Origin: an uncultured Bacillales bacterium
GTDB taxonomy: Bacteria; Bacillota_I; Bacilli_A; RFN20; CAG-449
Direction: 5' to 3'
Assembly (NCBI GenBank): GCA_945873815.1
Contig: CAMCEE010000002.1
Coordinates: 103,781 to 167,780 of the forward strand
DNA length: 64,000 bases
In this document: positions 13,639 through 59,334 of the stretch, piece after piece
Numbering within the stretch: the stretch's first letter is position 1
Layout of the letters: each line of letters starts with the position of its first letter
Made by a program: the position numbers and the translations under genes
The notes under the pieces: generated by a model
What the model was told of the DNA's origin: nothing
Database searches by the model: none
The model's input: only the letters and a program-made list of their open reading frames with translations

Positions 13639-13659
13639 TAAAGAAAGAAGAGGGGTTAT

Positions 13660-15072
13660 ATGAAAGAATTTTTAAATGATGATTTTTTATTAGATTCGGA
13701 AACGGCAAGAATTTTATATCATCAATACGCAAAGAAAATGCCAATATATGATTATCATTGTCATTTACCTATCAAGGAGATTTATGAAGATCGTAAATTT
13801 GATTCGATTACCGATTTATGGCTAGTTGAAGGACATTTTGGTGATCATTACAAATGGAGAGCAATGAGAAATAATGGCGTTTCTGAGGAATTTATCACTG
13901 GTAATGCATCAAAGAAAGATAAATTCTTAAAATGGGCAGATACTATTCCTTATGTAGTTGGTAATCCTTTATATCACTGGACGCATTTAGAATTAAGACG
14001 CTATTTCGGAATTAATGAAATCTTTTCTCCTAAAAATGCAGAAAAATGTTATGAAATAATGAACGAAAAATTGAAGAATATGTCTGCAAGACAAATTATT
14101 TCTATGAGCAATGTTGATACGTTATGTACTACAGATGATCCTGTTGATGATTTACATTATCATCAAGCTTTGAAAAAAGATAAATCATTTAAAGTCCATG
14201 TTTATCCAGCTTTTAGACCTGATAAAGCTATCAATATTGATTGGAGTTCATTTGTTCCTTACATAAAACAACTTTCTAAGGTAGTAGGCTATGAGATTAA
14301 TGACTTAGATTCTTTAGAAAAAGCATTAAAAGAGAGAATTGAATATTTCCACTGTAACGATTGCCGCGTATCAGATCATGCTCTTGATGTAGTTATGTAT
14401 GAAGATGCAACAAGAGAAGAAGTTGATGAGATTGTTAAAAAGGCATTAAGAGGTGAAACTCTAACTCATAGTGAAATCGCAAAATATCGTGGGTATATTA
14501 TCGTTATGTTAGGAAAAGAATATGCTTATCGCGGTTGGGTTCAACAATATCACATTAAAGCTTTGAGAAATAATTCTTCAAGAATGATGAGAACAATTGG
14601 CCCAGATACTGGATTTGATTCAATTAATGATGGCTCAATCGCTCAACCATTATCTCGTATTTTAGATAAATTAGATGAGAATAATGAATTACCAAAAACA
14701 ATTCTTTATTCATTGAACCCTAGTGATAATGAACTTCTTGCAACACTTGCTTTCTGCTTTAGAGAAGAAGGTGTTCCAGGTAAGATGCAATTAGGCTCTG
14801 CTTGGTGGTTCCTCGATCAAAAAGATGGAATGGAAAAACAACTAACTGCATTATCGAATCTTGGATTATTATCAAGATTTATTGGTATGCTAACTGATTC
14901 ACGTTCATTCTTAAGCTATACTCGTCATGAATATTTCAGACGTATTTTATGTAATAAATTAGGCAATTTAGTTGAAAATGGAGAATATCCAAACGATATT
15001 GAATTTTTAGGAAAAGTTGTTGAGGATATATGCTTCAATAACGCTAAAAAATACTTTGATTCATCAAGATAA
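13660..15072 (+). CDS. uxaC: Glucuronate (uronate) isomerase
   Basis: N-terminal signature FLNDDFLLDSETARILYHQYAKKMPIYDYHCHL. The length of 470 aa is typical of UxaC. Confidence 0.9.
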   Translation: MKEFLNDDFLLDSETARILYHQYAKKMPIYDYHCHLPIKEIYEDRKFDSITDLWLVEGHFGDHYKWRAMRNNGVSEEFITGNASKKDKFLKWADTIPYVVGNPLYHWTHLELRRYFGINEIFSPKNAEKCYEIMNEKLKNMSARQIISMSNVDTLCTTDDPVDDLHYHQALKKDKSFKVHVYPAFRPDKAINIDWSSFVPYIKQLSKVVGYEINDLDSLEKALKERIEYFHCNDCRVSDHALDVVMYEDATREEVDEIVKKALRGETLTHSEIAKYRGYIIVMLGKEYAYRGWVQQYHIKALRNNSSRMMRTIGPDTGFDSINDGSIAQPLSRILDKLDENNELPKTILYSLNPSDNELLATLAFCFREEGVPGKMQLGSAWWFLDQKDGMEKQLTALSNLGLLSRFIGMLTDSRSFLSYTRHEYFRRILCNKLGNLVENGEYPNDIEFLGKVVEDICFNNAKKYFDSSR

Positions 15073-15074
15073 TT

Positions 15075-15752
15075 ATGGATAAGAAGAAAATATATTTGAT
15101 TGGAGACTCTACTTGTCATACGAATAATTCAGATACATATCCGCAAACTGGTTGGGGACAAGTGTTTGGAGATTATATTAATAATGATTTTGAAGTAGTT
15201 AATCTTGCACAAAATGGACGTTCTAGCAAATCTTTTAAAGATGAGGGATGGTTTGAAGTAGTGGAAAGAAATATTGGTAAGGGAGATTATCTATTCATTC
15301 AATTTGGACATAATGATGAAAAAGATGATGAATTAAGACATACAGATCCATATTCTACCTATCAAGAAAATCTATTATATTACATTAATATTGCTAGAAA
15401 TAAAGGGGCTACTCCTATTCTTCTTTCATCAATATACCGTCGTCATTTTGATAATAATGGCAAAATTGAAGAATTTTGTCATAAGGAATATCCAAATGCG
15501 ATGAAAGAACTTTCGCTTAGAGAAAATGTTGTGTATTTAGATATTTGTGAAAAAACGAAGCAAATGCTTATTGAATTAGGTGATGAGAATTCGAAAGAAT
15601 TGTTTATGAATTTTGATAAGGGAATGTATAAGAATTATCCTGATGGGAAGAATGATGATACACATTTACGTGAAAAAGGTGCTAGAAAAGTAGTATTACT
15701 AATCATTGAAGAAATAAAAAAGATTCCTCAACTTAGAGAAATCTTAAGGTAA
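15075..15752 (+). CDS. SGNH/GDSL hydrolase, rhamnogalacturonan acetylesterase-like (CE12)
   Basis: N-terminal GDSL block IYLIGDSTC, block III GHNDE, and a D..H catalytic pair near the C-terminus. It has pectin-degradation neighbours. Confidence 0.7.
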   Translation: MDKKKIYLIGDSTCHTNNSDTYPQTGWGQVFGDYINNDFEVVNLAQNGRSSKSFKDEGWFEVVERNIGKGDYLFIQFGHNDEKDDELRHTDPYSTYQENLLYYINIARNKGATPILLSSIYRRHFDNNGKIEEFCHKEYPNAMKELSLRENVVYLDICEKTKQMLIELGDENSKELFMNFDKGMYKNYPDGKNDDTHLREKGARKVVLLIIEEIKKIPQLREILR

Positions 15753-15754
15753 TT

Positions 15755-15781
15755 GATCCGTTTATTCGGATCTTTTATTTT
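15755..15781. terminator. Bidirectional intrinsic terminator between convergent genes
   Basis: GATCCG-tttatt-CGGATC hairpin followed by TTTTATTTT. It is preceded by an A-rich tract that serves the minus strand. Confidence 0.55.
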
Positions 15782-16659
15782 ATGTGGCTCCAGGAGATTC
15801 TTGTTTCATTACTTTTTCCTGGACCATATGAATTGGATTCATAAAAGCGGCAATTTAGGTGTCTATCAGTGCCAGCCCAAATAGAGAATCCTTCCTTTTT
15901 TATGTGTGAATCTAGATAGCAATTCTCAAAATGTACCATGCCATATTCTCTCCATGGACGTGCTAAATATACCGAATTGTCTCTAGTATCTTTATGTTTG
16001 ATGATTCTACAATTTCTAAATATCATTCCATGATTGTTCTCCTTATCGTGATCTGGAGCACATATATATGTATCCGTCTCACAAGGTAGTGATTCAATCG
16101 TGCAATTAGTAAATAATGCGCTTGCTCCACCAAAGATAAAATCTACTGTTCCTGCAATATAGCAAGAGGTGAAATATTGATGAAATTCTCCTTTATGAAT
16201 TCTTTCATCTTCTGGTAGTAAATCTACGTATCTTTCGATTAAATCTGGAGAAAAAGGGCCACAAAATAGGGTATCTTGATGTGCAATAAGAGAACAATTT
16301 ATACAGCGAATATCATCATTATAGAGATGTAATGCAACTGCTTGTTCAACATCTTTTCCTTCACCTGCATCATTGATTATCGTTAGATTCTTTATTGTCA
16401 CATGAGGTGCTTTGATAAGCATAGTATATGTTCTAAATGTTACGTATGGTCGACCATCTTTATGTATGACATTTGCAGAATCATTAAATATTATTGTTGC
16501 TTTATTTTGCCCATCAATTGTGACATATGGTTTATCGATTACAACTTTTTCACGATATTCTTCATCCATAAGGATGATTGTAGTTTCTTCATTAATTAGA
16601 TTAATTGCTTCATTTATGCTTTTTATTTGTTCGTTTTTTCCAACTTTTATTGTATACAT
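15775..16659 (-). CDS. Pectinesterase (pectin methylesterase, CE8)
   Basis: CE8 motifs are present: QDTLF (IAHQDTLFCG), DFIFG (GTVDFIFGG) and LARPW. The start is trimmed to MYTIKVGKNEQ, which follows GGTG. The track start at 16707 would add a hydrophobic 16-aa leader. Confidence 0.75.
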   Translation of the reverse strand: MYTIKVGKNEQIKSINEAINLINEETTIILMDEEYREKVVIDKPYVTIDGQNKATIIFNDSANVIHKDGRPYVTFRTYTMLIKAPHVTIKNLTIINDAGEGKDVEQAVALHLYNDDIRCINCSLIAHQDTLFCGPFSPDLIERYVDLLPEDERIHKGEFHQYFTSCYIAGTVDFIFGGASALFTNCTIESLPCETDTYICAPDHDKENNHGMIFRNCRIIKHKDTRDNSVYLARPWREYGMVHFENCYLDSHIKKEGFSIWAGTDRHLNCRFYESNSYGPGKSNETRISWSHIK

Positions 16660-16738
16660 TATTATCACCAAATTCATTATATTATACTTAACAAATAATA
16701 AAAACATTTTTTTATACTATGTATAATATATAAATTTT

Positions 16739-16771
16739 GTTGTATACAACAATGAAATAATGGTGTATAAT
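16739..16771 (+). promoter_or_regulatory. Second copy of the GTTGTATACAAC palindrome (16739..16750), overlapping the -35 region of the eda operon promoter. The -10 element TGTATAAT is at 16764..16771.
   Basis: Identical 12-bp perfect palindrome as at 2359..2370. It lies 45 nt upstream of the eda RBS. Confidence 0.45.
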
Positions 16772-16816
16772 GAAATTGTAAATAATAACCAATAGTATTT
16801 AGGAGGAAAAAAATCT

Positions 16817-17428
16817 ATGGATGTATTATCAAAAGTTCACGAAATTGGTGTTGTTCCAGTAGTTGTACTTAATAAGGTTGAGGATACTGTTTCTGTAATT
16901 AAAGCGTTACATGATGGAGATGTTCCAGTTGCAGAAATTTGTTTCCGTACTCCTTGTGCAGCTGAATGCATTAAATTAGCAGTTAAGGAATTCCCAAATG
17001 ATTTAATCGGTGCAGGAACAGTTATTAATGCTAAACAATGTGAAGAAGCAATTGCTTGTGGAGCAAAATTTATTGTCTCTCCTGGTTTATCAAAGAGTGT
17101 TGCAGAAGTTTGTAAAAAACATAATGTTCCATATTTACCTGGCGTAGTTACTCCAACTGAGATAATGGAAGCAATTGAATTAGGACTAACAACATTAAAA
17201 TTCTTCCCAGCTGGTGTATTTGGTGGACTTAAGGCAATTAACGCATTAGGCGCAGCATTCCCACAAGTTAAATTCATGCCAACTGGTGGAGTTGATAATT
17301 CAAATCTAAAAGAATTTATTTCATGTAATAAAATTATCGCTTGCGGTGGATCTTGGATGTGTAAAGGAACTCCAGAAGAAATCACTGCAAAATGCTTAGA
17401 AGCAAGAAGAATTATTAAAGGAGAATAG
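16817..17428 (+). CDS. eda: 2-dehydro-3-deoxyphosphogluconate (KDPG) aldolase
   Basis: 203 aa KDPG/KHG aldolase TIM barrel with a strong RBS AGGAGGAAAAA. It is followed by kdgK. Confidence 0.8.
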   Translation: MDVLSKVHEIGVVPVVVLNKVEDTVSVIKALHDGDVPVAEICFRTPCAAECIKLAVKEFPNDLIGAGTVINAKQCEEAIACGAKFIVSPGLSKSVAEVCKKHNVPYLPGVVTPTEIMEAIELGLTTLKFFPAGVFGGLKAINALGAAFPQVKFMPTGGVDNSNLKEFISCNKIIACGGSWMCKGTPEEITAKCLEARRIIKGE

Positions 17429-17433
17429 GATAA

Positions 17434-18459
17434 ATGGCAAAAGTAGTTACAATGGGAGAAATCATGTTAAGACTTTCTTCCGCGGGAAATTCAAGATTCG
17501 TTCAATGTCAAGCCTTTGATGCTTGTTATGGTGGAGGAGAAGCAAACGTAGCAGTTTCTCTTGCGAATTATGGCCACGATGCATATTTTGTATCAAAAGT
17601 ACCTGCACACGAAATTGGACAATGTGCAGTTAACGCATTAAGAAGATATGGAGTTAATACAAAGTTCGTTGCACGTGGTGGAGATAGATTAGGTATCTAT
17701 TATCTTGAAACAGGTGCTTCAATGAGAGCTTCAAAAGTTATTTATGACCGTGCACATTCATCTGTTGCTGAAGCAGATCCAAGCGATTATGATTTCGATG
17801 CAATTTTCGAAGGAGCAAAATGGTTCCACTGGTCAGGTATTACTCCTGCAATTAGTGATAAATCAGCAGAATGCTTAAGATTAGCTTTAATCGCTGCTAA
17901 AAAACATGGTGTTACAGTTTCAGTCGACTTAAACTTCCGTAAGAAATTATGGACTAGTGAAAAAGCAATTTCAGTTATGAAACCATTAATGCAATACGTC
18001 GATGTATGTATTGGTAATGAAGAAGATGCAGCGTTATGTTTAGGATTTAAACCAGATGCTGATGTCGAAGGTGGAAAAACTGATGCTTCAGGATATTATG
18101 CTATTTTTAAACAAATGGCTAAAGAATTTGGATTTAAATATGTTGTTTCAACATTAAGAGAATCATATAGCGCAACTCATAATGGATGGAAAGCATTAAT
18201 TTATAACGGAAAAGATTTCTATGAATCAAAACATTATGACATCAACCCAATTATCGACCGTGTTGGTGGTGGAGATTCATTCTCAGGCGGCTTAATTCAT
18301 GGATTATTAACTTGGCCAGAAGATCAAGGAAAAGCACTTGAATTCGCAGTTGCAGCTTCTGCATTGAAACATACAATTCCAGGAGACTTCAACCTTGTTT
18401 CTGAAAGTGAAGTTTCTGCACTTGCAGGCGGAGATGCATCAGGTAGAGTACAAAGATAG
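17434..18459 (+). CDS. kdgK: 2-dehydro-3-deoxygluconokinase (PfkB family)
   Basis: PfkB carbohydrate kinase with the C-terminal motif DRVGGGDSFSGG. Its operon position between eda and kduI fits. Confidence 0.8.
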   Translation: MAKVVTMGEIMLRLSSAGNSRFVQCQAFDACYGGGEANVAVSLANYGHDAYFVSKVPAHEIGQCAVNALRRYGVNTKFVARGGDRLGIYYLETGASMRASKVIYDRAHSSVAEADPSDYDFDAIFEGAKWFHWSGITPAISDKSAECLRLALIAAKKHGVTVSVDLNFRKKLWTSEKAISVMKPLMQYVDVCIGNEEDAALCLGFKPDADVEGGKTDASGYYAIFKQMAKEFGFKYVVSTLRESYSATHNGWKALIYNGKDFYESKHYDINPIIDRVGGGDSFSGGLIHGLLTWPEDQGKALEFAVAASALKHTIPGDFNLVSESEVSALAGGDASGRVQR

Positions 18460-18468
18460 GAGAATAAA

Positions 18469-19308
18469 ATGAGAGAATTAGACATTAGATATGCAAATCA
18501 TCCAGAAGATTCAAAACACTATACTACTGAGCAATTAAGAAAACATTACTTAATTGAAGAAGTTTTTGTGGAAGATGATATAGCATTAACATATTCTCAC
18601 CAAGATAGAATTATTGCTGGTGGTGCATATCCAGTACATAAATCGCTTAAACTTGAAGCTGGTGATGCTTTAAGAGCAGATTACTTCTTACAAAGAAGAG
18701 AATTAGGTATTTTCAATCTTGGTGGAGATGGAAAAGTTATTCTTGATGGAAAAGAATATGTCATGCATAGAACAGATGCATTATATGTTGGAATGGGAAC
18801 AAAAGATGTAGTATTCGAATCTCTCGACTCATCTAATCCTGCAAAATTCTATATGAATAGCTGTCCAGCTCATAAAACATGCCCAACAGTATATTTACCA
18901 ATTGAAAAAGCAAAAAAAGTTCCTTGTGGAGATCAAGCACACATCAATAAAAGAGTTATTAATCAATTCATTCACTCTGATGTACTTGAGACTTGCCAAT
19001 TATCAATGGGATTAACTCATATTGAAGAAGGAAGTGCATGGAATACAATGCCATGCCATACTCACGAAAGAAGAATGGAAGTATATTTCTATTTCGATCT
19101 TGGTGAAGATGACGTTGTCTTCCATCTTATGGGACAACCTCAAGAATTAAGAACTCTTGTAATGAAAAATGAACAAGCAGTAATCTCACCTTCTTGGTCA
19201 ATCCATTCCGGATTTGCAACAAAGAATTATACATTTATTTGGGGTATGTGTGGTGAAAACAAAACATACAACGATATGGATGTAATTAAAGCTACAGACT
19301 TAAAATAA
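18469..19308 (+). CDS. kduI: 4-deoxy-L-threo-5-hexosulose-uronate ketol-isomerase
   Basis: The N-terminus MRELDIRYANHPEDSKHYTTEQLRKHYL is characteristic of KduI. It is a 279-aa cupin. Confidence 0.85.
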   Translation: MRELDIRYANHPEDSKHYTTEQLRKHYLIEEVFVEDDIALTYSHQDRIIAGGAYPVHKSLKLEAGDALRADYFLQRRELGIFNLGGDGKVILDGKEYVMHRTDALYVGMGTKDVVFESLDSSNPAKFYMNSCPAHKTCPTVYLPIEKAKKVPCGDQAHINKRVINQFIHSDVLETCQLSMGLTHIEEGSAWNTMPCHTHERRMEVYFYFDLGEDDVVFHLMGQPQELRTLVMKNEQAVISPSWSIHSGFATKNYTFIWGMCGENKTYNDMDVIKATDLK

Positions 19309-19329
19309 TTTCGAAAGGGGAACATAATC

Positions 19330-20124
19330 ATGAATCAATTTTCATTAGAAGGTAAAATCGCACTCATTACAGGTGCTTCATATGGTATCGGATTTGGTAT
19401 TGCTCAAGCATATCATAATGCGGGTGCAAAAATCGTATTTAACGATATAAGTGAAGAAGCAGTTGCTAGAGGACTTGAAAATTACAAAGCTGCTGGCATT
19501 CCAGTACATGGATATGTATGCGATGTTACAAACGAAGAACAAGTTCAAGCAATGGTAAAACAAATTGAAGAAGAAGTCGGTATAATTGATATTCTTGTTA
19601 ATAATGCTGGTATTATTAAAAGAATTCCAATGACTGAATTATCTGCTTCAGATTGGAGAAAAGTGATTGATATTGACTTAACTGGACCATTTATTTGTTC
19701 AAAAGCAGTTCTCCCATCAATGATTAAAAAAGGACATGGTAAAATTATTAATATTTGTTCCATGATGTCAGAACTTGGTAGAGAAACAGTTTCTGCATAT
19801 GCTGCTGCAAAAGGTGGCTTAAAGATGTTAACAAGAAATATCTGTGCTGAATATGGTGAATACAATATTCAATGTAATGGTATTGGACCTGGTTACATTG
19901 CTACTCCACAAACTGCTCCATTAAGAGAAACTCAACCTGATGGAAGTAAACATCCATTTGACCAATTCATTTGTTCAAGAACTCCTGCAGGACGTTGGTT
20001 GAATCCAGATGAATTAGGTGGACCTGCAGTATTTTTAGCTTCAGATGCATCAAATGCTGTCAACGGACACATACTATACGTTGATGGTGGTATCTTAGCT
20101 TATATTGGAAAACAACCTAAGTAA
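19330..20124 (+). CDS. kduD: 2-dehydro-3-deoxy-D-gluconate 5-dehydrogenase (SDR)
   Basis: SDR Rossmann motif TGASYGIGFGIA and the catalytic YxxxK (YAAAK). It is paired with kduI. Confidence 0.8.
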   Translation: MNQFSLEGKIALITGASYGIGFGIAQAYHNAGAKIVFNDISEEAVARGLENYKAAGIPVHGYVCDVTNEEQVQAMVKQIEEEVGIIDILVNNAGIIKRIPMTELSASDWRKVIDIDLTGPFICSKAVLPSMIKKGHGKIINICSMMSELGRETVSAYAAAKGGLKMLTRNICAEYGEYNIQCNGIGPGYIATPQTAPLRETQPDGSKHPFDQFICSRTPAGRWLNPDELGGPAVFLASDASNAVNGHILYVDGGILAYIGKQPK

Positions 20125-20163
20125 GAATATAGGTAATAACCGCTATCATTATCTATTTTGACA

Positions 20164-20193
20164 AAGTACGCATCCTCCGCGTACTTTTTTTTA
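20164..20193 (+). terminator. Rho-independent terminator after kduD
   Basis: GTACGC-atcctcc-GCGTAC hairpin followed by a T9 run. Confidence 0.7.
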
Positions 20194-20287
20194 CATTTTG
20201 GAATTATATCGACAATATAAAAAAATTATATCTAGATTTTTTTATTTGATATCTATATAATCAAGTCATGGGGGGATACTATTTATT

Positions 20288-22447
20288 ATGGAAGAGAATA
20301 TCATAAATTTAAATGGTAAAAATATTGAAGTCATCAACAATTCATTAATTCGTGTCTATAAGGAGAAAAATAGTAGTAAATTAGTAAAACTCTCATTAGA
20401 ACATTCTGATTTAGATCTGAAAATTAATGATGAAGAAATAAGATTTAATGACTATTTATTAAAAATAGGTGACAATCAACGTTTATCTGTATACAAAAAT
20501 GATGAATTATTATTCAATGAGATTAGTAATAATAATTTTGTTCGTTATGATGATGAAGGTGAAGTTAAAACAAGAATTAAGTTTGAAATCACCGATAAAG
20601 CGTACATTTACGGACTTGGAGATAAAGCAGCTTTTTTAAATAGAAAAGGATATCAATATGTTTCATGGAACACTGATGATCCTACTGCACATAATGAAAC
20701 ATATCGTTCTTTATATAAGTCAATCAACTTTATGATTATTAATGATAGAGATAAATATGTCGGTATTTTCTATCCAAGTTCATATAAAACATTATTTGAT
20801 TTAGGTAAAACTTTTCCTAATGAAATAAATATTATTTCTCAAAAAGGAAGTGACGATTATTTCCTAATTTTAGGCGATAATCCTTTAGATATAATTAGAA
20901 CTTATTCTTTACTTGTTGGACGCACATTCTTGCCAAGATTAAAGATGCTAGGTAATCAACAATCCCGTTGGTCATATGCAAAAGAAGAAGATTTTAGATA
21001 TGTAGTAAATGGATATAAATCAAATAAATTGCCTCTTGATTATATTCACCTAGATATCGATTATATGGTTAGATTCAGCAATTTTACTGTTGATAAGGAA
21101 AAGTATCCAAATCTCAAATCGTTGTCCGACGAAATGAAGGAACAAGGAATCGATATTGTTGCAATATACGATGCAGGAGTTAAAGTTGAAAAAGGATATT
21201 TTTTCTATGATAATCTTTTAAAAATGGATTATTTGCTAACGCTTGATAATAAACCATACGTTAATGTAGTTTGGCCTGGTGATTCAGTTTTTCCAAATTA
21301 TTTTGATTCTAAATGTCGTGAATATGTAACTAATGAAGCAATTAATTTTGAAGAAAAATACGGTATTGCAGGTATTTGGTGTGATATGAATGAACCTGCT
21401 TCATTTAATGGACCTCTTCCTTTGAATGTTGAAGCAAGAAAGGCAAATGGAGAAGTTTTCTACCATGATGAATTCCATAATATGTATGGTGAATACATGA
21501 CTAGAAGCATAGCAAAATCATTTACAAGACGTAATCTTCGTCCATTTGTTATCACTCGTGCTTGCTTTGCGACAACATCAAAGTATTCACTTGTTTGGAA
21601 TGGCGATAATCAATCATTGTGGCATCATTTAGAAGCTTCTTTACCTCAAGTAGCTACTATGAATATTTGTAATTTCCCACTAGATGGAGTTGATGTCGGC
21701 GGATTCAATTGTGACGTAACTAAAGAATTACTAATTAGATGGATTGAAGCAAATATTTTTAATCCATTCTTAAGAAATCATTCGTCTGCAGGTACTAGAG
21801 GACAAGAACCTTGGGCATTTGATGAAGAAACATTAAATGTATATCGTGATATGTTAAGTATCCGTTATGAATTAATCCCATATTTATACGATTTATCTGT
21901 AAAGGCACATCTAAAAGGTGAGCCAATCATTAGACCATTATTTGTGAATTTCCCATTTGATGAAAAAGTTAAAGAGATAAATGATCAAGTAATGATAGGT
22001 GAGAGTTTAATGATTTGTCCTATTGTTCATCAAGGTAAAAAAGATCGAGTAGTGTATTTACCTGAAGGAAATTGGTATGACTATTTCACTCATCAAAAAT
22101 ATGAAGGAAACAAAAAGATGCTTGTTGAAATCCCATTAGATAAAACATGTATTTTTGTTAAAGAGGGTGCAATACTTCCAAAATATCGTAACTTATTAAG
22201 TATTAATAAAAATGAGATTGATGAAATCATCTTTGATGCATCATATGGTGAAGGAACATATATTAATTATGAAGATGATGGAGAAACATTAGATTATCTT
22301 CAAGGTGAGTCTAATGAATATTGCATTACAAATCATAAAGGAAAAGTAAGTGTTGAATATAAATATAAAGGTTATGTTTCACCATATAAACATATATATG
22401 TATATGATGGAAAAGAATATAAAGATGTAATTGATGAATTAAAGTAA
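20288..22447 (+). CDS. Glycoside hydrolase family 31 (alpha-glucosidase/alpha-xylosidase-like)
   Basis: GH31 catalytic-nucleophile region GIWCDMNEP. The length of 719 aa and the N-terminal beta-sandwich arrangement are typical of GH31. Confidence 0.8.
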   Translation: MEENIINLNGKNIEVINNSLIRVYKEKNSSKLVKLSLEHSDLDLKINDEEIRFNDYLLKIGDNQRLSVYKNDELLFNEISNNNFVRYDDEGEVKTRIKFEITDKAYIYGLGDKAAFLNRKGYQYVSWNTDDPTAHNETYRSLYKSINFMIINDRDKYVGIFYPSSYKTLFDLGKTFPNEINIISQKGSDDYFLILGDNPLDIIRTYSLLVGRTFLPRLKMLGNQQSRWSYAKEEDFRYVVNGYKSNKLPLDYIHLDIDYMVRFSNFTVDKEKYPNLKSLSDEMKEQGIDIVAIYDAGVKVEKGYFFYDNLLKMDYLLTLDNKPYVNVVWPGDSVFPNYFDSKCREYVTNEAINFEEKYGIAGIWCDMNEPASFNGPLPLNVEARKANGEVFYHDEFHNMYGEYMTRSIAKSFTRRNLRPFVITRACFATTSKYSLVWNGDNQSLWHHLEASLPQVATMNICNFPLDGVDVGGFNCDVTKELLIRWIEANIFNPFLRNHSSAGTRGQEPWAFDEETLNVYRDMLSIRYELIPYLYDLSVKAHLKGEPIIRPLFVNFPFDEKVKEINDQVMIGESLMICPIVHQGKKDRVVYLPEGNWYDYFTHQKYEGNKKMLVEIPLDKTCIFVKEGAILPKYRNLLSINKNEIDEIIFDASYGEGTYINYEDDGETLDYLQGESNEYCITNHKGKVSVEYKYKGYVSPYKHIYVYDGKEYKDVIDELK

Positions 22448-22480
22448 AAGAGAATGCCGGAGCATTCTCTTTATTTTATT
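22448..22480. terminator. Bidirectional terminator between the convergent GH31 and giant lipoprotein genes
   Basis: AGAGAATGC-cgga-GCATTCTCT, a 9-bp perfect stem, followed by TTATTTTATT. Confidence 0.7.
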
Positions 22481-25400
22481 CTGCATTTGACCAAATTCTA
22501 GAAGCATATTCAGGGAAATCAATAAATGGATTTCTATTTCCTTGTAATGCGTATACAGCATTGTTTCGATTGATTTCTAATTCATCAACTGGATCAAGTT
22601 CATTCCATTTTACTAATAGTTTATAGACAGAATCTTCAGTTCCTTCCTTTGTATAAACATTATTCGATAATGGATATGATGAAATGTATTCTTTATATCT
22701 TACTAACATATATAATAATACTCTTGCAACATCGCCTTTAACATTATCTAAAGGTTCAAAGACACCATTTCCAGTACCCATTGTTGTATCACCATTTAAG
22801 TATCCATATGGTGTGTCTAAATATGTTTTTAAATATTTATCTCTATTTGTTAATTCACCATATTGTGAATTATTTCTCGAGGAATTAATTGATTTATATA
22901 ATGGTCTTAATTGATGTAAATCAGTACCTGCATTTACCGATTTGTTATCGATCTCACCATACCAAGCTTTAGATTGGCACCATACATGTTCACGGTTCCA
23001 TGTATTACCATTGTCCCAAGTTCCATCTAAAGATAAGTGAGAATAGAAATCGATAATGTATCCAGGCTTTGATGGATCAGCATCGGTTAAATATGCTAAT
23101 AAGGAACAATCCTTATAAGATGTTTGATATGTGTGAGTATCAGTAGTTAATGTATTTAATGCTGACCATAGTGTTTCACCAGTATATGTATTTTCAATTG
23201 ATGCATAGTAATCTTGTCTAATAATATCTTTTGCTTTAGTTGTTAGATTTAAACTAATCGAAGATACACCTACTTGGTTTTCGTTACTAGATAAATCAAC
23301 TACTACTCTAGATACATTATTTGGGATTGATGTTGAATTAATGACTAAAACTCCATTGGTAAATGTAGAAGAGGAACCACAGGAAATTAATTCACTTCCG
23401 TTATAGTATTTGAGTGTAACACTTTTTGATTTTGAACTATATTGCTTTAAGGTGACTTGAATACTATTAATTGTACTGTTTGGTGTATTAATTGTTACGG
23501 TACCATTTTTTACTACTGGACAATCCATTGTAGCAACATCTTGTAATGAAGCGGATGAATAATTCATTGTAACGAGTGGAGTATTTTGAATAAACATACC
23601 TGAAGTAAGAATTCTTGCAGCGTATGAAGTACTCCATTGATATGAATAGTTATCACGTTTCGACGAATTATCAAATGTATAGCTTTCAGTTACACTTGCA
23701 TTTGATTCTTGTTCATATTCTGTGATTAATGAATTTGCAAGTTCTACATTGCTTAATGATGGTAAATCGCTATACTCTCCATAATTGTCGTAGTATGTTT
23801 TTGCATCTGATACAGCTTCATCATATAAACTCTTAATTTGTATATATTGAGCGGCGGTTAATGAAGATGTAGAATTTAATTCTTCAGTAGTAATGAAACT
23901 ATCGAGATTACCAATTGAGGTAGTTGCAGTAGTTTTTGAACTATTCTTTTCACTATTAAATGAATTTATTAGTGTTTTTGTTTGGGAATATAAGCTGTAA
24001 TTAGAAATGTCTGAAGTTTGTCCGCCTTTATTAACATAAGCAGTTATATAACCTTCTATTGTAGTTAGTAGGGTACTTACTTCATTAGCATTTGCTTTTG
24101 TAATTGATGAATAAGCAGACAATTCATTAATATATGTTTCGGCAGAAGTTTTATTTACGTCTTCCGTTTCACTTACATCTGGAACAATGTAAACTTTTAC
24201 GCTTTGAATAGATATTTGTCCATTCGTTGCTGTACCAGTGTTTCCTACAGTGAATGTTAGTGATGAATTGTTAATTGCTATTTCATCATTAGAATTATAT
24301 TCTGTTTCGTTATATACAAGGATTCCTGTATTAGAAATTTTATATGTGAATACTATCTTACTAATTTTCCCAATTGATGATGTAATTGTAACGGCACCAG
24401 AATCGGATTGATAGATTTTCCATGCCTCATCTTTTTCATTATATGTACCTGTATATTTTCCTGTTTTAGTAACTTTCATTTCTATTCCATTTTCAATAAT
24501 GATTGAATCAGAGTCATATTTTGTTGAATTAGTCCATCCTTTAGCATCAGCATAATCTTTTATTGATAAAATGAATTCTTGTTCACTTGTTGCATTTACC
24601 CACTTAGCGTAGAGAGTTACATTAGCAGTTAATACACTATTTGGAGTAGCTTCTTCACCCCAATCATCATCCGTTCCATCTTTTGTGTACCATCCTTCGA
24701 ATCTATATCCTGTTGCAGATAAAATTGGTAATACACTTGGAAGTTTTGTTTGATCTACTAAATTTGTAGGTTGAGCACCATGTCCATTAATATCGTATGT
24801 AACAGAATATTTTGCTCCATAATTCCAGGTGATTTCAGTTGTTTCATCTTCAAATTCGCCATTTAGAGAATGAGCGACTACTTTGAATGTATATGTTCCA
24901 TTTTCTAATGTATCATCAAAATTATATGATTTATCTGGAATGTTACTTTGAACTAAAGTATAGTCACCATCTCCAGTTTTATAATATAAATCAAATGATG
25001 AGCCAACCGCATTCCACATAATTGTAGATTCTTCAAAAATAATATCTTTTGGTTTAGAAACAGTATCTAAGAGCTTACTAAATGAAGCAGAACTACTAGT
25101 AGTATAATATCCATATACTTTTACTTTATCTCCTTCACCTAATCCTAATTTTTTGATTTGTGTGGATAGAGTACTATTAAGAGTTACATAAGAAGTGTTT
25201 TCATAGATTCTAATAGTAGAATATGATGTATCTCCAATAGTTCCAACGAAAATATAGTATTTATTTGAAGCAGTATCTGATGCACATACTTCTGCGATAG
25301 ATGATGTAGTCATCTTTTTAAATGATGCAGATATTAAGGAATCGCCGCTAATTGGTAGATTATAAACGATTGTTTTATTGCTATTAGATACTGGCTCTAA

Positions 25401-28400
25401 TTTACTTAAATCTACTTCAACACTGTTAATCAATACTTTATCGAGAGTATATTGATCAATTGCAGTAAATGTTACTTTTACTGTACTTCCGTTTCTTACT
25501 GAATCACTTTCAATCGTAATTGAACCATTATCGATTTCACTATCAATTGTGACATCACAATATACATCCGTTTCAATAGTTAAAGTGGAATTCTTACCTT
25601 CTGGCATTTCGAATTTGAGTTCGCCAGTGGCTTCATTATATTTCTCTATAATAGAATCACCATTTAATAAAATGTCTTTAATAAAGAACCCTTCTTTTGC
25701 AGTGATATTTCCACCAACAATAATTGTTTCATTGTATTTATCACTAAAGCCTGTTACTTCTGCAGCTTTATTGTTATATGAAATTGCTAAATCTCTAATT
25801 GCAGTTTCTTGGAAGAATACGACCTCAATTTCTCCACCATATGAACCATTAAATGTTGCAGTATAAGTTCCATCTTCATTTTTAATTGCTTCAAGAACAT
25901 TATCTCCAACCTTAACGCTTGTTACCATCTTTCCTTCTTCCGGAGTCATAGTAATAGTGATTGTATCAGGGAAGTATAAATTTTCTAATGAACCTGAAGA
26001 TGAAGTTGCTTCAACACTTCCACCAGTATATGATTCTTTTAGTGTAACAGTCTTTGCTTCTGGAGTTGATACTTTATATAGTGAAGGTACAAAGTAAGTG
26101 TTACCTCCAATATTTGTTGTGCCGTAGAAACCAAATGCTTTAGTGCTACTACTATATCGCATCAATAATGCTCGTTCACCATTTGCAAAATATAGAAGAT
26201 TTGGGTTATTTTCAGATTGCTTTAATGTCCATAAGTATTCTGTATCTGCTAATTTGAGGGAAGTATCTGATGATGAACTAGCAGATAAATACTTATCGCC
26301 TATTTTAATTACATACGTTTTTGCTTCAGCATCTTTGACTTCGATTGTCCATATATCTGAGGATGGAATAGTATATGAGGACATATCAGTAGTAGAATTA
26401 CATGTATCTATTTTAATAGTCGAAGTTTTACTGATATTTGTTGTAACAAAGAAGATTTCTCCATTACTATTTTGTGCACCAAGGGCATATGTTCCAGATA
26501 CTACTGAATCTAGTGAAGTAATTTTTTCAACTGTTGTAGGAACTATGATTTTTAAAGTAGTAGATAAAGTTTCTGCAAAAGAGTAGTTTGCGATATCTTT
26601 TCCGGAAAGTTGAAGCGTAAATGTATGAGTGCCAATTGCTTTTTTACCTTCTTCTATAAAAGATCCTGTAACTACATCATCATTAACTAATCCTTCGATT
26701 TTAAATGAAGGAAGATGAGCTTTACCATCATAAGCAACAGCTTTATTATCCCAAGTAATTGTTAAAGCTTTTTTACTTACTGTGATAGATTTTGCTTCAT
26801 AAATCTTAATGGTTTCTTTTGTCGCAGAATTATTATATATGACTACATAATAATATTTACCTGCGTTTATAGTATCATCCATAGAAATTATGTTTGTACA
26901 TGCTTCATCACTATAATATCTGATTTGAAGAGTTGTTCCAGTTAAATGATGAGGAATTAATTGTGAATTTAATTCGTCATTTGTTCCATCATAAGTATAG
27001 GCGATGTCATTATATGCAATGTCTAAGAATGGGTTAGTGATAGAATAATTGATATTTCCAGTAAATTCCGCATCACTCCATTCATAATTTTTTGTATCCT
27101 TTAATGTTATATTTGCAGTGTAATTGCCTACATTAATTTCAGAGCCAAAATTGACTGTATATAGTGAATTAGGATTAATTGCAACAACAGGACCTCCTGT
27201 ATAGTATAAGCATTCATTTAAAGTAGGTACTGCTACTTTAGCTTTAGAAATTACTAATGTAATAGTTAAATTACTATTATCTACATAATAGTTATCTTTA
27301 TCTGCACCTAATAATGAAACAGAGAAATCATAACTTCCAACATTAATTGCTTCACTTCCAGTGAGGGAAACAGAAACTTCTGTTCCATCTATTATTCCTG
27401 AAGAAATAGAGCATGAAGGCTTTTGACTTTCACCGGTGTATTGTACATTAGTGGATGTGAAAGCTAAATTTAATTTAGCCTTATTGATAGTTAATTCAGC
27501 TGTTAAAACATCGTATTCATTTTGATTTGGTGTTGCAACAGCGTAATATTTTCCAGCGTTAATAGGTGTAACTTCTTTAGTATGTGCGCTATCACTATAG
27601 TATTTGATTTCATATTCCACATCTAAATTTTCAATGCCATAAATATCAAGTGATTGAACAGTGTTATTAAAAGTGACTTCTTTATTAGTCATACCAATTC
27701 CTTGAGGTGCTGCGATAAAGTATTCTATTTTTCCATCGAATGAGCTATTAGACCATTCATAGTTGTTTGTATCTTTTAGAGTTACTGTTGCAATTGTTGC
27801 TCCAACATTTATTGAAGAACCGTTTTCAACATTGTATAGATCACTTGGATTAACACCTACTACAGGTGAGCCAGTATAAACTAAATCAGTATTTGCACTT
27901 GGAACATCAACTTTTTGTTTATTGATTGTTAAAACTTGTTTTCTTACTAATACTTGATTTTCTAAACCAGTGCCTGAAAAGGATATAAGAGCATAATATT
28001 TTCCAGCGTTTGTTGGAGCAGTGATTTCATTTTTGCAATCTTCGTCGCTATAATACTTGATTGCTGCTTCAACATTTTCAGGAAGATTAGAAACCGAAAC
28101 TTCTTTAGGTGTTCCATTATATGTATTTACTAATCCAGTATATTGAACTTCACTTAATGGATCAGTAATGGAGAAAGGAACTTTACCATTAAAACTACTA
28201 TCTTTCCAGCAATAGTTTTTAGTATCAGTCAATACCACTGTTGCTTCATAGTTACCTACGTTAGTTGCTGAACCATTAACGACTGTATATTCATTTGTAG
28301 ATTCTATAGCTGTGATTTCATTTCCTGTATAGAAGTAATTACTATTTAATTTTGGAACATCAACTTCTGCTTTAGCAATTGTTAATTTACAAGTCATAGG

Positions 28401-29021
28401 AGCGATAGGATTATGATTGTTATCGCGTGAAGTAAATGTTGCTTTTGCATAGTATGTACCAGCGTTGATACAAGCGCTAATTTCTTTAGTACATGCTTCA
28501 TCTGTGTAATATTTTATTTGATATGTAATGCCAGTTGGTAATGTGCCTCCAAGAGAAACAAATTGAGCTTCTTTATTATATTTTGTTTCTACGTCTATAA
28601 ATGTAATTCCAGAAACATCTTCATTTGCCTTTTGGATAGTTAATTTTCCTGTTATTTCTTTTGGATTGTATCCATCTTTTGATATTCTTGCTCTAATTTC
28701 ATATTCACCAGCATCAATAAATTTATAGGTGGATAAATATTCAATGTTTAATCCAGTGGAATTATGGATTTGTAATTGATGCTCATTGCCATCATAAGTA
28801 ACTGTTGCATCAATGAAATCAATCGATGCATCAAAATCTTTTAAAGTGGATGAAGTTGAACTATTACTAGATGATTGAGTGGAAGATGATTCTTCTGATG
28901 AAGTAGTAACACTACTAGAAGTATCTGCTTTTATCTTACATCCAGATAGCATTAAAAGAGCAGATAAGCATGTTAGACTTAAACCTGCAATTATTTTCTT
29001 TTGCGTTTTCTTGTTGTTCAT
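22476..29021 (-). CDS. Giant (2181 aa) cell-surface lipoprotein with a Ser-rich linker, multiple MBG/YGX-type and Flg_new (Listeria-Bacteroides) repeats, and a C-terminal Endonuclease-I family extracellular nuclease domain
   Basis: Lipoprotein signal MNNKKTQKKIIAGLSLTCLSALLMLSGC. Repeated modules of about 90 aa (…NAGKYYA…, …YTGSPV…) are present, as is the Flg_new-like repeat GYRFEGWYTKDG…VTLYAKW. The C-terminus carries the Endonuclease_1 signature NREHVWCQSKAWYG…DLHQLRPLYKSINSSRNNSQYGEL. Confidence 0.75.
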   Translation of the reverse strand: MNNKKTQKKIIAGLSLTCLSALLMLSGCKIKADTSSSVTTSSEESSSTQSSSNSSTSSTLKDFDASIDFIDATVTYDGNEHQLQIHNSTGLNIEYLSTYKFIDAGEYEIRARISKDGYNPKEITGKLTIQKANEDVSGITFIDVETKYNKEAQFVSLGGTLPTGITYQIKYYTDEACTKEISACINAGTYYAKATFTSRDNNHNPIAPMTCKLTIAKAEVDVPKLNSNYFYTGNEITAIESTNEYTVVNGSATNVGNYEATVVLTDTKNYCWKDSSFNGKVPFSITDPLSEVQYTGLVNTYNGTPKEVSVSNLPENVEAAIKYYSDEDCKNEITAPTNAGKYYALISFSGTGLENQVLVRKQVLTINKQKVDVPSANTDLVYTGSPVVGVNPSDLYNVENGSSINVGATIATVTLKDTNNYEWSNSSFDGKIEYFIAAPQGIGMTNKEVTFNNTVQSLDIYGIENLDVEYEIKYYSDSAHTKEVTPINAGKYYAVATPNQNEYDVLTAELTINKAKLNLAFTSTNVQYTGESQKPSCSISSGIIDGTEVSVSLTGSEAINVGSYDFSVSLLGADKDNYYVDNSNLTITLVISKAKVAVPTLNECLYYTGGPVVAINPNSLYTVNFGSEINVGNYTANITLKDTKNYEWSDAEFTGNINYSITNPFLDIAYNDIAYTYDGTNDELNSQLIPHHLTGTTLQIRYYSDEACTNIISMDDTINAGKYYYVVIYNNSATKETIKIYEAKSITVSKKALTITWDNKAVAYDGKAHLPSFKIEGLVNDDVVTGSFIEEGKKAIGTHTFTLQLSGKDIANYSFAETLSTTLKIIVPTTVEKITSLDSVVSGTYALGAQNSNGEIFFVTTNISKTSTIKIDTCNSTTDMSSYTIPSSDIWTIEVKDAEAKTYVIKIGDKYLSASSSSDTSLKLADTEYLWTLKQSENNPNLLYFANGERALLMRYSSSTKAFGFYGTTNIGGNTYFVPSLYKVSTPEAKTVTLKESYTGGSVEATSSSGSLENLYFPDTITITMTPEEGKMVTSVKVGDNVLEAIKNEDGTYTATFNGSYGGEIEVVFFQETAIRDLAISYNNKAAEVTGFSDKYNETIIVGGNITAKEGFFIKDILLNGDSIIEKYNEATGELKFEMPEGKNSTLTIETDVYCDVTIDSEIDNGSITIESDSVRNGSTVKVTFTAIDQYTLDKVLINSVEVDLSKLEPVSNSNKTIVYNLPISGDSLISASFKKMTTSSIAEVCASDTASNKYYIFVGTIGDTSYSTIRIYENTSYVTLNSTLSTQIKKLGLGEGDKVKVYGYYTTSSSASFSKLLDTVSKPKDIIFEESTIMWNAVGSSFDLYYKTGDGDYTLVQSNIPDKSYNFDDTLENGTYTFKVVAHSLNGEFEDETTEITWNYGAKYSVTYDINGHGAQPTNLVDQTKLPSVLPILSATGYRFEGWYTKDGTDDDWGEEATPNSVLTANVTLYAKWVNATSEQEFILSIKDYADAKGWTNSTKYDSDSIIIENGIEMKVTKTGKYTGTYNEKDEAWKIYQSDSGAVTITSSIGKISKIVFTYKISNTGILVYNETEYNSNDEIAINNSSLTFTVGNTGTATNGQISIQSVKVYIVPDVSETEDVNKTSAETYINELSAYSSITKANANEVSTLLTTIEGYITAYVNKGGQTSDISNYSLYSQTKTLINSFNSEKNSSKTTATTSIGNLDSFITTEELNSTSSLTAAQYIQIKSLYDEAVSDAKTYYDNYGEYSDLPSLSNVELANSLITEYEQESNASVTESYTFDNSSKRDNYSYQWSTSYAARILTSGMFIQNTPLVTMNYSSASLQDVATMDCPVVKNGTVTINTPNSTINSIQVTLKQYSSKSKSVTLKYYNGSELISCGSSSTFTNGVLVINSTSIPNNVSRVVVDLSSNENQVGVSSISLNLTTKAKDIIRQDYYASIENTYTGETLWSALNTLTTDTHTYQTSYKDCSLLAYLTDADPSKPGYIIDFYSHLSLDGTWDNGNTWNREHVWCQSKAWYGEIDNKSVNAGTDLHQLRPLYKSINSSRNNSQYGELTNRDKYLKTYLDTPYGYLNGDTTMGTGNGVFEPLDNVKGDVARVLLYMLVRYKEYISSYPLSNNVYTKEGTEDSVYKLLVKWNELDPVDELEINRNNAVYALQGNRNPFIDFPEYASRIWSNAE

Positions 29022-29278
29022 TATTATTATCTCCTTAAAACATTATTGAAAAATATGCCTTATATTTACATTATAATGTAAAAGAAAAAATAATTAAAGT
29101 TAGAAATACCATTTTGAAATGAGATAAATAATCTTAAAATGCAAATAAAAACAATTATAAAAATTTACAGTATAAGAAAAAAATACTATAAAATTGATAC
29201 AAAATAAATTGTTTAATATTTCTTTTTGTCTTCATAATAATACTATCTTGTTATATAATATTTGAGGGAGAAAACAGT

Positions 29279-29797
29279 ATGATTAACATTATTTTATATC
29301 AACCAGAAATACCTCAAAACACAGGTAATATCATTAGAACTGCTATGGCAGTTGGCGCAAGACTTCATCTTATTAAACCTTTAGGATTTTCATTGGATGA
29401 AAAGTCTCTTAAGCGTGCAGGAATGGATTATATTGATGAAGTAGATATTTTTGAATATGATGATATGGAAGATTTCTATATGCAAAATGGTGATGTTGAG
29501 ATATTTTATGTTACTAGATACGCTAAAAAAGAATACTCTTCATTCGATTTTAAAGATGTTACAAAAGATTATTTCTTTATGTTTGGTAAAGAATCATCAG
29601 GCATTCCTCATGACATATTAAGAAATCATGATGATCATTTATTAAGAATTCCTATGGTAATTAATGCGAGAAGTCTTAATCTGTCAAATTCAGTAGCGAT
29701 AGTTGTTTATGAAGCGATGAGACAACAATCATTCTATGGATTATCAACTATTGAAGCAATTAAGGGTGAAGATTTTTTAGATGAAGAGGTAAAATAA
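29279..29797 (+). CDS. trmL: tRNA (cytidine/uridine-2'-O-)-methyltransferase, SpoU/TrmL family
   Basis: MINIILYQPEIPQNTGNIIRTAMAVGARLHLIKPLGF is the SPOUT N-terminal signature. The size is 172 aa. Confidence 0.8.
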   Translation: MINIILYQPEIPQNTGNIIRTAMAVGARLHLIKPLGFSLDEKSLKRAGMDYIDEVDIFEYDDMEDFYMQNGDVEIFYVTRYAKKEYSSFDFKDVTKDYFFMFGKESSGIPHDILRNHDDHLLRIPMVINARSLNLSNSVAIVVYEAMRQQSFYGLSTIEAIKGEDFLDEEVK

Positions 29798-30312
29798 TGA
29801 ATAAGAAGGGACTACTTTTCTTTTTAACTTTTACTTTATTTGCTTCTTCTTGTAATTTTACGATAGATTATGGAGAAGATGTTTCAAATAATTATGAAAA
29901 TCTTGTTCCATATATAAACGTAGAAAAAATTGAAGAAAACAAATATTTTGATATTAATGTCGATGAATACGCATTAAAAATGGATGCGAGTGATACTTTT
30001 ATTTGCTTGTTTTATACTGCGAATTGCTCCGCTTGTAAGGCAGCAAAAGAGAAATATATAATTCCATATATTGAAGAAACTAAAAACAAAGTATACGCAA
30101 TAGATGTTTATAGTGATGTTAATTTAAATAATTTAGAGAAACTTCAATCATATCAACCTGAAGATTCTTCGTATGTTCGGAAGAATGAAGAAGGAGTCAT
30201 GGTTGTTTCTAGACCTCTAATTCAAATAATTTATGAAGGGCAAGTAATTGCTTATGAAAAAGGCCTAACAAAAAATATCCGTTATATTTTAGACGGATAT
30301 TGTCTTGTTTAA
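29797..30312 (+). CDS. Thioredoxin-fold lipoprotein with a CxxC motif
   Basis: Lipobox FASSC. The CSAC motif lies within FICLFYTANCSACKAAKEKY. Its start overlaps the trmL stop (ATGA). Confidence 0.4.
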   Translation: MNKKGLLFFLTFTLFASSCNFTIDYGEDVSNNYENLVPYINVEKIEENKYFDINVDEYALKMDASDTFICLFYTANCSACKAAKEKYIIPYIEETKNKVYAIDVYSDVNLNNLEKLQSYQPEDSSYVRKNEEGVMVVSRPLIQIIYEGQVIAYEKGLTKNIRYILDGYCLV

Positions 30313-34821: not shown

Positions 34822-34860
34822 ACAAAAAAAGCCTCGAGAATTCGAGACTTTTTATTTTAT
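34822..34860. terminator. Putative bidirectional terminator between priA and the convergent metalloprotease gene
   Basis: CTCGA-gaat-TCGAG hairpin flanked by an A7 tract on the 5' side and TTTTTATTTTAT on the 3' side. The stem is short. Confidence 0.4.
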
Positions 34861-59333: not shown

Positions 59334-59334
59334 T

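Follow-up and report, generated by a model that had tools for sequence, protein, structure and literature searches.

We analysed a 64,000-nucleotide stretch of contig CAMCEE010000002.1 (assembly GCA_945873815.1) from an uncultured Bacillales bacterium, called the window below, and within it a gene on the minus strand (22476..29021) that encodes a giant, putatively surface-exposed protein of 2181 amino acids (aa). An earlier note, made from the letters alone, had read the product as a lipoprotein with adhesin-type repeats and a C-terminal nuclease, acquired horizontally and lying beside a biofilm-type locus. Our results suggest that it is a stalk-borne, lipid-anchored, non-specific nuclease that degrades extracellular DNA and/or RNA for scavenging and for clearing matrix, a reading to which we give a probability of about 0.6. 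The gene is a fusion of an adhesin-type scaffold with a three-part nuclease module, found in only about three lineages, and it has been inherited vertically at a conserved locus.

In the C-terminal domain, Endonuclease_1 (PF04231, His-Me finger group 9) matches aa 1944-2171 at E = 3.9e-38, with 132 bits where 25 is the cut-off, spanning profile positions 19-235 of 235, and the NREHVW, DLHQLRP and INSSRNN motifs are all present. When the domain was aligned with 32 homologs (33 sequences), R2010-E2011-H2012, D2034, P2040 and N2046 were invariant, as were the KGD-AR, W-D-V-E-RN and N-D motifs. The DLHxL, KGDvAR and GNrNPF blocks align with Vvn (1oup), E2011-H2012 match the Glu-His motif of the family (WEH in Vvn), and N2046 aligns in both phmmer and profile alignments with the Asn of Vvn’s EVNGDR segment. 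We take this Asn to be Vvn N127, assuming that Vvn residue numbers equal the chain index plus 18; the Glu and His of WEH, at chain positions 61 and 62, are then presumably residues 79 and 80. The positions assumed for Glu and His agree with the numbering in PMC5758888, where Glu79 touches the metal directly, His80 serves as general base, and the scissile phosphate is contacted by Asn127 and stabilised by Arg99. The catalytic His and Asn that the first reading had looked for are both present, the Asn by alignment with Vvn and the His, with its Glu, by motif and by place in the model described next.

The AlphaFold2 (AF2) model of the domain, built from the same 33 sequences, has a mean predicted local distance difference test score (pLDDT) of 89.3 and places a strand ending at the His, then a second strand, then a helix bearing the Asn. 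In a Foldseek search of the PDB, the first seven places go to structures of Vvn or Vibrio EndoI, with probability 1.00 and a target-normalised TM-score (TMt) of 0.53-0.65; Vvn 1oup reaches 0.65, and the eighth match has E = 0.75. The Endonuclease_1 core and its Vvn-like beta-beta-alpha-metal fold are therefore confirmed by both profile and predicted structure, and the domain is predicted to be catalytically competent.

Selection on the gene points the same way. We compared it codon by codon with its syntenic ortholog P0002 (locus L001), using the ratio of nonsynonymous to synonymous divergence (dN/dS). The nuclease domain is 93% identical with dN/dS 0.056, a sign of strong purifying selection, making it the most constrained part of a gene whose overall value is 0.19. 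Stalk domains range over 0.07-0.42, most of them 0.14-0.25 (MBG array 0.17, FN3 part 0.073, domain A 0.42), at about 68% identity, and the beta-rich domain B that precedes the nuclease is 81% identical with dN/dS 0.136. Constraint that peaks at the tip speaks for a functional enzyme rather than for the tip of a polymorphic toxin. The protein does share with polymorphic toxins its overall plan, being exported, very long and rich in repeats with a nuclease at the C-terminus, and could accordingly be pictured as a contact-dependent toxin like WapA, CdiA or Rhs that delivers its nuclease into competitors. Its conservation, highest at the C-terminus (93% against about 68% in the stalk), is the opposite of a hypervariable tip, and the stop codon is followed by a terminator and a convergent GH31 gene, with no candidate immunity gene downstream. 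The nearest nuclease relatives are stand-alone lipoproteins, and Endonuclease_1 is a family of secreted, housekeeping-type nucleases (PMC5714182). We rejected the toxin explanation on the missing immunity gene and the tip that is not hypervariable, and regard it as extremely improbable.

The protein is encoded by a single open reading frame (ORF) with an ATG start and a ribosome-binding site, AAGGAG, about 8 nt 5' of it; at 2181 codons in 30%-GC DNA it is not a chance product. The frame is undisrupted in several independent assemblies, so the frameshifts that the earlier note had allowed for do not appear: an identical copy lies on a 195-kb NCBI/Logan/ENA contig, further intact copies are P0001 (ENA, 99% identical) and P0220 (Logan, 2180 aa), and the ortholog P0002 (2180 aa, 71% identical) is also whole. 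The parts of the gene and its borders are, from the 5' end:

29022..29278, minus strand: 5' intergenic region, with AAGGAG and a conserved TTTACnTTATAAT block
28938..29021, minus strand: signal peptide with lipobox, aa 1-28 (L25-S26-G27-C28), from the translation
28842..28937, minus strand: Ser/Thr-rich flexible linker, aa 29-60, 21 of 32 residues Ser or Thr
26538..28841, minus strand: ten MBG-like repeats, aa 61-828, from a motif scan and an internal profile search
26064..26537, minus strand: beta-rich domain X, aa 829-986, conserved in the scaffold family
25308..26063, minus strand: about three putative immunoglobulin (Ig)-like beta-sandwich domains, aa 987-1238, from sub-threshold Pfam matches
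24816..25307, minus strand: small beta domain, aa 1239-1322, then an FN3-like part, aa 1323-1402, from weak fn3 matches
24594..24815, minus strand: Flg_new (Listeria-Bacteroides repeat), aa 1403-1476, PF09479
24180..24593, minus strand: domain A, a beta-sandwich resembling carbohydrate-binding modules (CBMs), aa 1477-1614, confidently modelled
23691..24179, minus strand: alpha-helical segment of five helices, aa 1615-1777, AF2 pLDDT mostly 82-97
23244..23690, minus strand: beta-rich domain B, aa 1778-1926, directly before the nuclease, pLDDT 32-68
22479..23243, minus strand: Endonuclease I (His-Me finger) domain, aa 1927-2181, from Pfam, AF2 and Foldseek
22447..22472, both strands: intrinsic-terminator hairpin, GC-rich with an 11-bp stem

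The hairpin would serve as a bidirectional terminator common to the nuclease gene and the convergent GH31 gene. The leader (29022..29278) is 80% conserved against that of P0002, and an Rfam scan of it found no significant riboswitch.

The N-terminus reads MNNKKTQKK-IIAGLSLTCLSALLM-LSG-C28. The criteria for a lipoprotein signal were positive charge in the n-region, hydrophobicity in the h-region and a [LVI][ASTVI][GAS]C lipobox, and all three are found here (KKTQKK, IIAGLSLTCLSALLM and LSG-C28) and are invariant in the ortholog. This signal is the sole hydrophobic segment of the protein. We therefore predict cleavage by signal peptidase II and lipidation of Cys28, although neither lgt nor lsp lies within the 64-kb window. 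The C-terminus ends ...RIWSNAE with no LPXTG and no hydrophobic segment, for which we rejected a sortase-anchored surface protein. The lipobox and Ser-rich linker of the first reading both hold, and the choice it left between lipid and sortase anchoring falls to a predicted lipid anchor.

The first part of the stalk consists of MBG-like repeats, in an array of two alternating subtypes with one further unit:

aa 64-131, 135-217, 288-368, 440-514 and 664-750: five type A repeats (xAGxYY)
aa 218-287, 369-438, 516-592 and 594-663: four type B repeats (NVGxY)
aa 751-826: one MBG_2/YDG-type unit

The array was thus correctly anticipated, with ten repeats where at least eight had been counted, but the NAGKYY motif said to mark each of them is present in its exact form just three times; the five type A repeats carry [ND]AG[KTE]Y. 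Scans of isolated segments brought MBG_3 (25.4 bits) and MBG_2 (27.8 bits) barely over the cut-off of 25, and a Pfam scan of the full-length protein reported no MBG family. Homologs with the same array carry PF18676 (MBG_2) and PF18887 (MBG_3).

Beyond the array, domain X recurs in P0002, P0003, P0004, P0005, P0007, P0018 and P0026. Pfam gives weak hints only for it (DUF4623, E = 0.002; CCL2 lectin-like, E = 0.017), and a search against PDB sequences returned no match. The matches over aa 987-1238 (CooC_C, Invasin_D3, Filamin and Big_7) are all sub-threshold, and together suggest an Ig-like fold. The FN3-like part has weak fn3 matches (E = 0.01-0.02). The Listeria-Bacteroides repeat is secure, with PF09479 matching aa 1405-1473 (E = 4.2e-12; 46.4 bits, cut-off 27).

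The first reading had overlooked the helical segment and the sandwich of domain A, both of which appear in an AF2 model that we built for aa 1477-1926. Domain A is where the nuclease-less homologs of the scaffold end, and the helical segment of about 160 aa is where a C-terminal module specific to the nuclease fusion begins. Among the matches listed, the helical segment occurs only in P0002 and P0391, and domain B only in P0002, P0391 and P0448. Between domains A and B, BLASTP gave no match and hhalign a probability of 20%.

The fusion origin of the gene can be read from its relatives. P0003 and P0004 are lipoproteins of 1434-1438 aa without a nuclease; they match about 60% of the query, with identity of about 30%. 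P0003 follows aa 1-1610 collinearly, from lipobox to domain A, and stops right after domain A. Both have their loci beside enolase, in other genomic surroundings and without a nuclease in the vicinity. The nuclease domains closest in sequence (43-53% identity) lie in proteins of 200-450 aa, among them P0099, P0101 and P0109, which consist of a lipobox, a long Ser-rich linker and EndoI. As scaffolds occur without the nuclease and the closest nucleases are small lipoproteins, the gene is a scaffold-nuclease fusion. A third lineage is represented by P0391, a more divergent fragment (46% identity) in which helical segment, domain B and EndoI follow in the same order. The full combination was found in just two 90%-identity clusters and one fragment among 5.8 billion proteins. 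A scan of 185,579 species-representative genomes, made with two peptide patterns only and so of limited sensitivity, found no full-length ortholog and gave only fragments with the EndoI or the MBG part.

The earlier note had taken the size of the gene and its convergent orientation as signs of horizontal acquisition. Its surroundings do not bear this out:

1-22.4 kb: pectin/hexuronate utilisation locus of 22 kb, convergent with the nuclease gene, with altronate dehydratase, ABC sugar transporter, GH28, UxaC, GDSL esterase, pectinesterase, KDPG aldolase, KdgK, KduI, KduD and GH31
Other flank: SpoU, a 171-aa lipoprotein, RqcH, Gmk, PriA, RsmB, RlmN, PP2C, a kinase, RsgA and Rpe

The GC content of the gene (31.1%) matches that of the window (30.3%), and the ortholog in L001 stands at the same place with the same neighbours. 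Synonymous divergence (dS) from L001 is 1.01 for the gene and 0.98 for PriA, 1.14 for RqcH, 1.00 for SpoU and 0.97 for GH31. As the gene’s dS equals that of its core neighbours, recent horizontal acquisition is unsupported and the gene has been inherited vertically at a conserved locus. The pectin genes behave differently. Window positions 12970-20124 and L001 positions 16704-23856 are almost identical, with dS of 0.03-0.10 for GntR, UxaC, GDSL, pectinesterase and Eda and 0.34-0.49 for KdgK, KduI and KduD, while from GH31 to PriA dS is about 1.0 throughout, except for Gmk (0.40). Because divergence steps up so steeply at the edge of the island, this pattern suggests that the pectin island was recently exchanged, by recombination or transfer, between the two lineages.

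The company of the pectin locus raises the question of whether the stalk is there to hold the cell on plant material. The protein would then be a plant-particle (pectin) adhesin whose stalk, through its MBG repeats and a CBM77-like domain A, anchors the cell to pectin-rich matter in gut or rumen, with the nuclease an auxiliary tip that digests nucleic acids released there from plants or microbes, and the gene would belong functionally with the pectin locus, with which it is convergent and has a terminator in common. Part of the case turns on domain A, whose modelled fold has some likeness to CBM structures. CBM77 binds homogalacturonan (bioRxiv 10.1101/2022.07.25.501355), and a profile built from 23 domain A sequences has its best PDB match in 2wz8, a protein of a clostridial cellulosome (E = 0.0055). 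However, the resemblance to CBM structures comes with 7-11% identity, the domain has no match to CBM77 at the sequence level, and the same profile found no match to 5fu5, 8x8h or 8wc1. Domain A also occurs in many unrelated architectures (most of the 647 clusters described below), and the scaffolds P0003 and P0004 adjoin enolase, not pectin genes. Finally, the difference in dS between island (0.03-0.10) and gene (1.0) means that the two were not inherited as a unit. We regard the pectin adhesin as a doubtful explanation, though one that is a compatible refinement of the scavenging nuclease. A CBM-like domain A that possibly binds pectin or another polyanion is a lead, not a finding.

Domain A is nevertheless of interest in itself. 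It has no Pfam match and is likewise without annotation in NCBIfam. A query with aa 1477-1926 matches 647 representative clusters, most of them through domain A, as do 147 of the 150 best-scoring proteins, often at the extreme C-terminus of unrelated surface proteins. The domain is often C-terminal or in tandem, with five copies in P0390 (family members P0390-P0537), and its consensus is ...GKYYtsG.nWR.YQ...TY...GvL...VGNTGTATNGQ..IT.IEV. P0421, a pilin-like protein, carries it after an N-methylation motif of type IV pilins and a nucleic-acid-binding domain with an OB-fold. This is a large domain family without annotation that is worth describing.

A broader and more tentative reading than the pectin adhesin is that the scaffold is a modular display platform with which uncultured, possibly wall-less gut Bacilli bind plant pectin, and which here has captured a nuclease module. 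Domain A might then be a new, widespread CBM-like family that binds polyanions, whether pectate or nucleic acid.

Two other settings had been suggested for the nuclease. Degradation of neutrophil extracellular traps (NETs) would make it an immune-evasion factor like SpnA, SsnA, EndA or MnuA. The catalytic domain appears competent in our model, and in streptococci and mycoplasmas NETs are indeed broken down by non-specific nucleases tethered to the surface (PMC12115388). Here, though, the gene lies between plant-pectin catabolism and housekeeping genes with no sign of a pathogen, its orthologs come solely from metagenome assemblies, and the only named relatives, those of PriA, are uncultured "Bacilli bacterium" metagenome-assembled genomes (MAGs). 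In addition, the characterised NET-degrading enzymes are, to our knowledge, of a different catalytic family from Endonuclease I. The suggestion thus finds no footing at this locus, and we consider it very unlikely.

The second setting was a biofilm-type locus next door. The true neighbour is the pectin/hexuronate locus, and what was probably meant lies at least 21 kb off, beyond about 17 housekeeping genes and an insertion sequence (IS):

50559-62586, plus strand: presumed "biofilm-type" cluster, with GGDEF + HD-GYP and EAL proteins

This cluster also encodes two small proteins with TasA/camelysin-like signals (...AWFT...), and two large proteins for which Pfam gave nothing significant, only sub-threshold AAA hints in one of them. 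An S26 signal peptidase at 59320-59961 is confirmed by Pfam and SipW-like; the ORF at 54979-55824 is Pfam-negative and resembles an S26 peptidase by its N-terminus only.

Returning to the scavenging nuclease, we picture it working as follows. After export by Sec, the protein would be lipidated at Cys28, and the Ser/Thr-rich linker with some 20 tandem domains would form a long stalk. This would hold a Mg2+-dependent, sugar- and sequence-non-specific His-Me-finger nuclease at its membrane-distal tip, where it would cut the extracellular DNA and/or RNA that surrounds the cell, possibly while the stalk binds plant or host polymers. Cleavage would yield oligonucleotides, nucleotides and phosphate for uptake and would loosen nucleic-acid-containing matrix. 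In the proposal of a long-stalked nuclease that scavenges extracellular DNA, the architecture is thus borne out and the role is reasonable, while the biofilm neighbourhood is not.

Several observations weigh against this reading. The Omega-loop is shorter than that of Vvn and has no positional equivalent of Arg99; R2010 and R2039, both invariant or nearly so, may be substitutes for it. The four disulfides of Vvn are missing, the only cysteines in the domain being C1972 and C2015, which means that regulation and folding differ from those of the characterised enzymes. The four disulfides are a trait of the gamma-proteobacterial subgroup and not a criterion for the whole family, as deltaproteobacterial Endonuclease I members likewise lack these cysteines (PMC3593177), and a disulfide-free domain fits an anaerobic habitat. 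The substrate may also differ: the family includes RNase Bsn (PMC5714182) and one close homolog, P0154, is named "ribonuclease", making RNA as plausible a substrate as DNA. Domain A adds little support, since its likeness to CBM structures is one of fold at very low identity and the nuclease-less scaffolds carry it too, so that it teaches us nothing specific to the nuclease. For a scavenger, finally, the gene is poorly accompanied: the only nucleotide salvage gene in the window encodes a pyrimidine-nucleoside phosphorylase, and no transporter or nucleotidase is co-located with the nuclease gene, unlike in some mycoplasma operons.

The nuclease might instead act as a barrier, limiting the entry of transforming or phage DNA, or process DNA during competence, a function suggested before for EndoI of the periplasm, Vvn and Dns. 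Endonuclease_1 nucleases have been associated with lower transformation by foreign DNA (PMC5714182), but the tip of a stalk of about 2000 residues is poorly placed to act at the membrane, and no competence or defence genes are adjacent. We think such a role highly improbable.

The window gives some hints about the host. The closest named relatives of its PriA, at 57% identity, are the "Bacilli bacterium" MAGs. A PrkC-like Ser/Thr kinase of 303 aa (40943-41854, plus strand), in the usual gene order PP2C-kinase-RsgA-Rpe, has no PASTA or other extracellular domains; several of the window’s proteins are lipoproteins, two of them (the nuclease gene product and a 782-aa protein) with Ser-rich linkers; and one nuclease homolog comes from Acholeplasmataceae. 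Together the PASTA-less kinase, the lipoproteins and this homolog suggest, though weakly, a Mollicutes-like host among the Bacilli that has no wall and uses genetic code 11. The nuclease does sit at the far end of the stalk, as its description as "cell-wall-distal" implied, but by the same weak hint the wall itself may be moot. Trp is encoded by TGG, which indicates code 11 though TGA stops are strongly avoided: the 49 ORFs of at least 100 aa taken as genes end in TAA (32), TAG (16) and TGA (1). The single TGA stop ends the GGDEF/HD-GYP gene at 52835, and the TGA trinucleotide is common in the window.

Other features of the neighbourhood deserve mention. The 171-aa lipoprotein (29797-30312, plus strand; lipobox FASSC, no Pfam match) is translationally coupled to the SpoU gene and lies close to the nuclease gene and divergent from it; its ortholog is 77% identical with dN/dS 0.12. 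That it is a surface inhibitor of the nuclease would be pure speculation. The 782-aa lipoprotein (34857-37205, minus strand; lipobox LLAGC) has no Pfam match either. Its Ser-rich linker looks longer than 100 aa, as judged from a partial reading, and a comparison with the neighbours of P0003 found no relation. The IS is a DDE_Tnp_1 transposase gene (44593-46356, plus strand) between the housekeeping block and an RsmF-like gene, and GC skew is locally reversed over 44-48 kb. At L002 6675-8834, the GH31 neighbour of the 99%-identical copy is split into 583 aa and 109 aa, a frameshift or assembly error in the neighbour and not in the nuclease gene.

The protein combines familiar parts in a rare way and does not represent a novel type of system. 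Vvn, E. coli EndoI (EndA) and Vibrio Dns (PF04231; 1oup, 2g7f, 2pu3) are of the same family and fold, and their Glu-His pair, Asn, and DLHxL, KGD-AR and GN-NPF motifs are conserved here. Identity is only about 20%, however, and those enzymes are single-domain Gram-negative proteins of about 210 aa with four disulfides, while here the domain is the C-terminal part of a 2181-aa lipoprotein, without those cysteines and without a positional Arg99. Closer in kind are the small lipoprotein EndoI of uncultured Bacilli and Acholeplasmataceae. P0099, P0101 and P0109 follow the same lipobox and Ser-linker logic, but their nuclease comes directly after the linker, with no MBG/Ig/CBM-like stalk, helical segment or domain B; the "ribonuclease" P0154 (239 aa, 43% identity) has no lipobox/Ser-linker signal in its sequence. 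The nuclease-less scaffolds P0003, P0004 and P0007 (1434-1535 aa) match about 60% of the query, again with identity of about 30%. P0003 has the lipobox, MBG array, domain X, Ig-like, FN3, Flg_new and domain A parts in the same order, but the scaffolds end at domain A, lacking the module of about 570 aa that comprises helical segment, domain B and EndoI.

Surface-tethered nucleases are also known from other families. SpnA of S. pyogenes, SsnA of S. suis and YhcR of B. subtilis are multi-domain surface proteins that act on extracellular DNA. They belong to other catalytic families and have a C-terminal LPXTG anchor, with the nuclease near the free N-terminal part, whereas in the window protein it forms the free C-terminal tip. 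The membrane nucleases of mycoplasmas, which include an exo-endo-phosphatase type, are functional analogues. MnuA, MAG_5040 and MGA_0676 are lipid-anchored, surface-exposed and non-specific and serve nucleotide acquisition, and such lipoprotein nucleases supply nucleotide precursors (PMC12115388). Those with an assigned fold are SNase/TNASE_3-type and none is an Endonuclease I (PMC12115388); they are smaller (276-646 aa) and have no adhesin stalk. Endonuclease_1 domains have been found together with surface Ig-like, fn3, LTD and Big_2 domains (PMC5714182), and these surveyed proteins have the same general design of EndoI with Ig-like modules. Both that pairing and the surface tethering of nucleases were therefore already known. 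What sets the protein described here apart is its set of partners (MBG array, Flg_new and CBM-like domain), together with a lipid anchor at the N-terminus, a conserved adaptor module and the fact that the combination is so rare.

These results do not overturn current understanding, but they give a well-founded annotation to a giant and otherwise nameless metagenomic protein. They also correct the inference of horizontal transfer, as it is the pectin island and not the nuclease gene that bears the signature of recent exchange. The gene is a clean case of modular evolution, in which a stand-alone scaffold and EndoI were joined through a conserved adaptor of helical segment and beta-domain, and in which the stalk evolves fast while constraint on the enzyme tip is much stronger. 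If the scaffold is indeed a pectin-binding display platform, the nuclease would be a long-reach enzyme working on the surfaces of plant particles. If its activity is confirmed, the protein would be the first Endonuclease I enzyme known to match the membrane nucleases of mycoplasmas in uncultured relatives of theirs from gut or rumen, and a disulfide-free EndoI that is possibly a useful enzyme.

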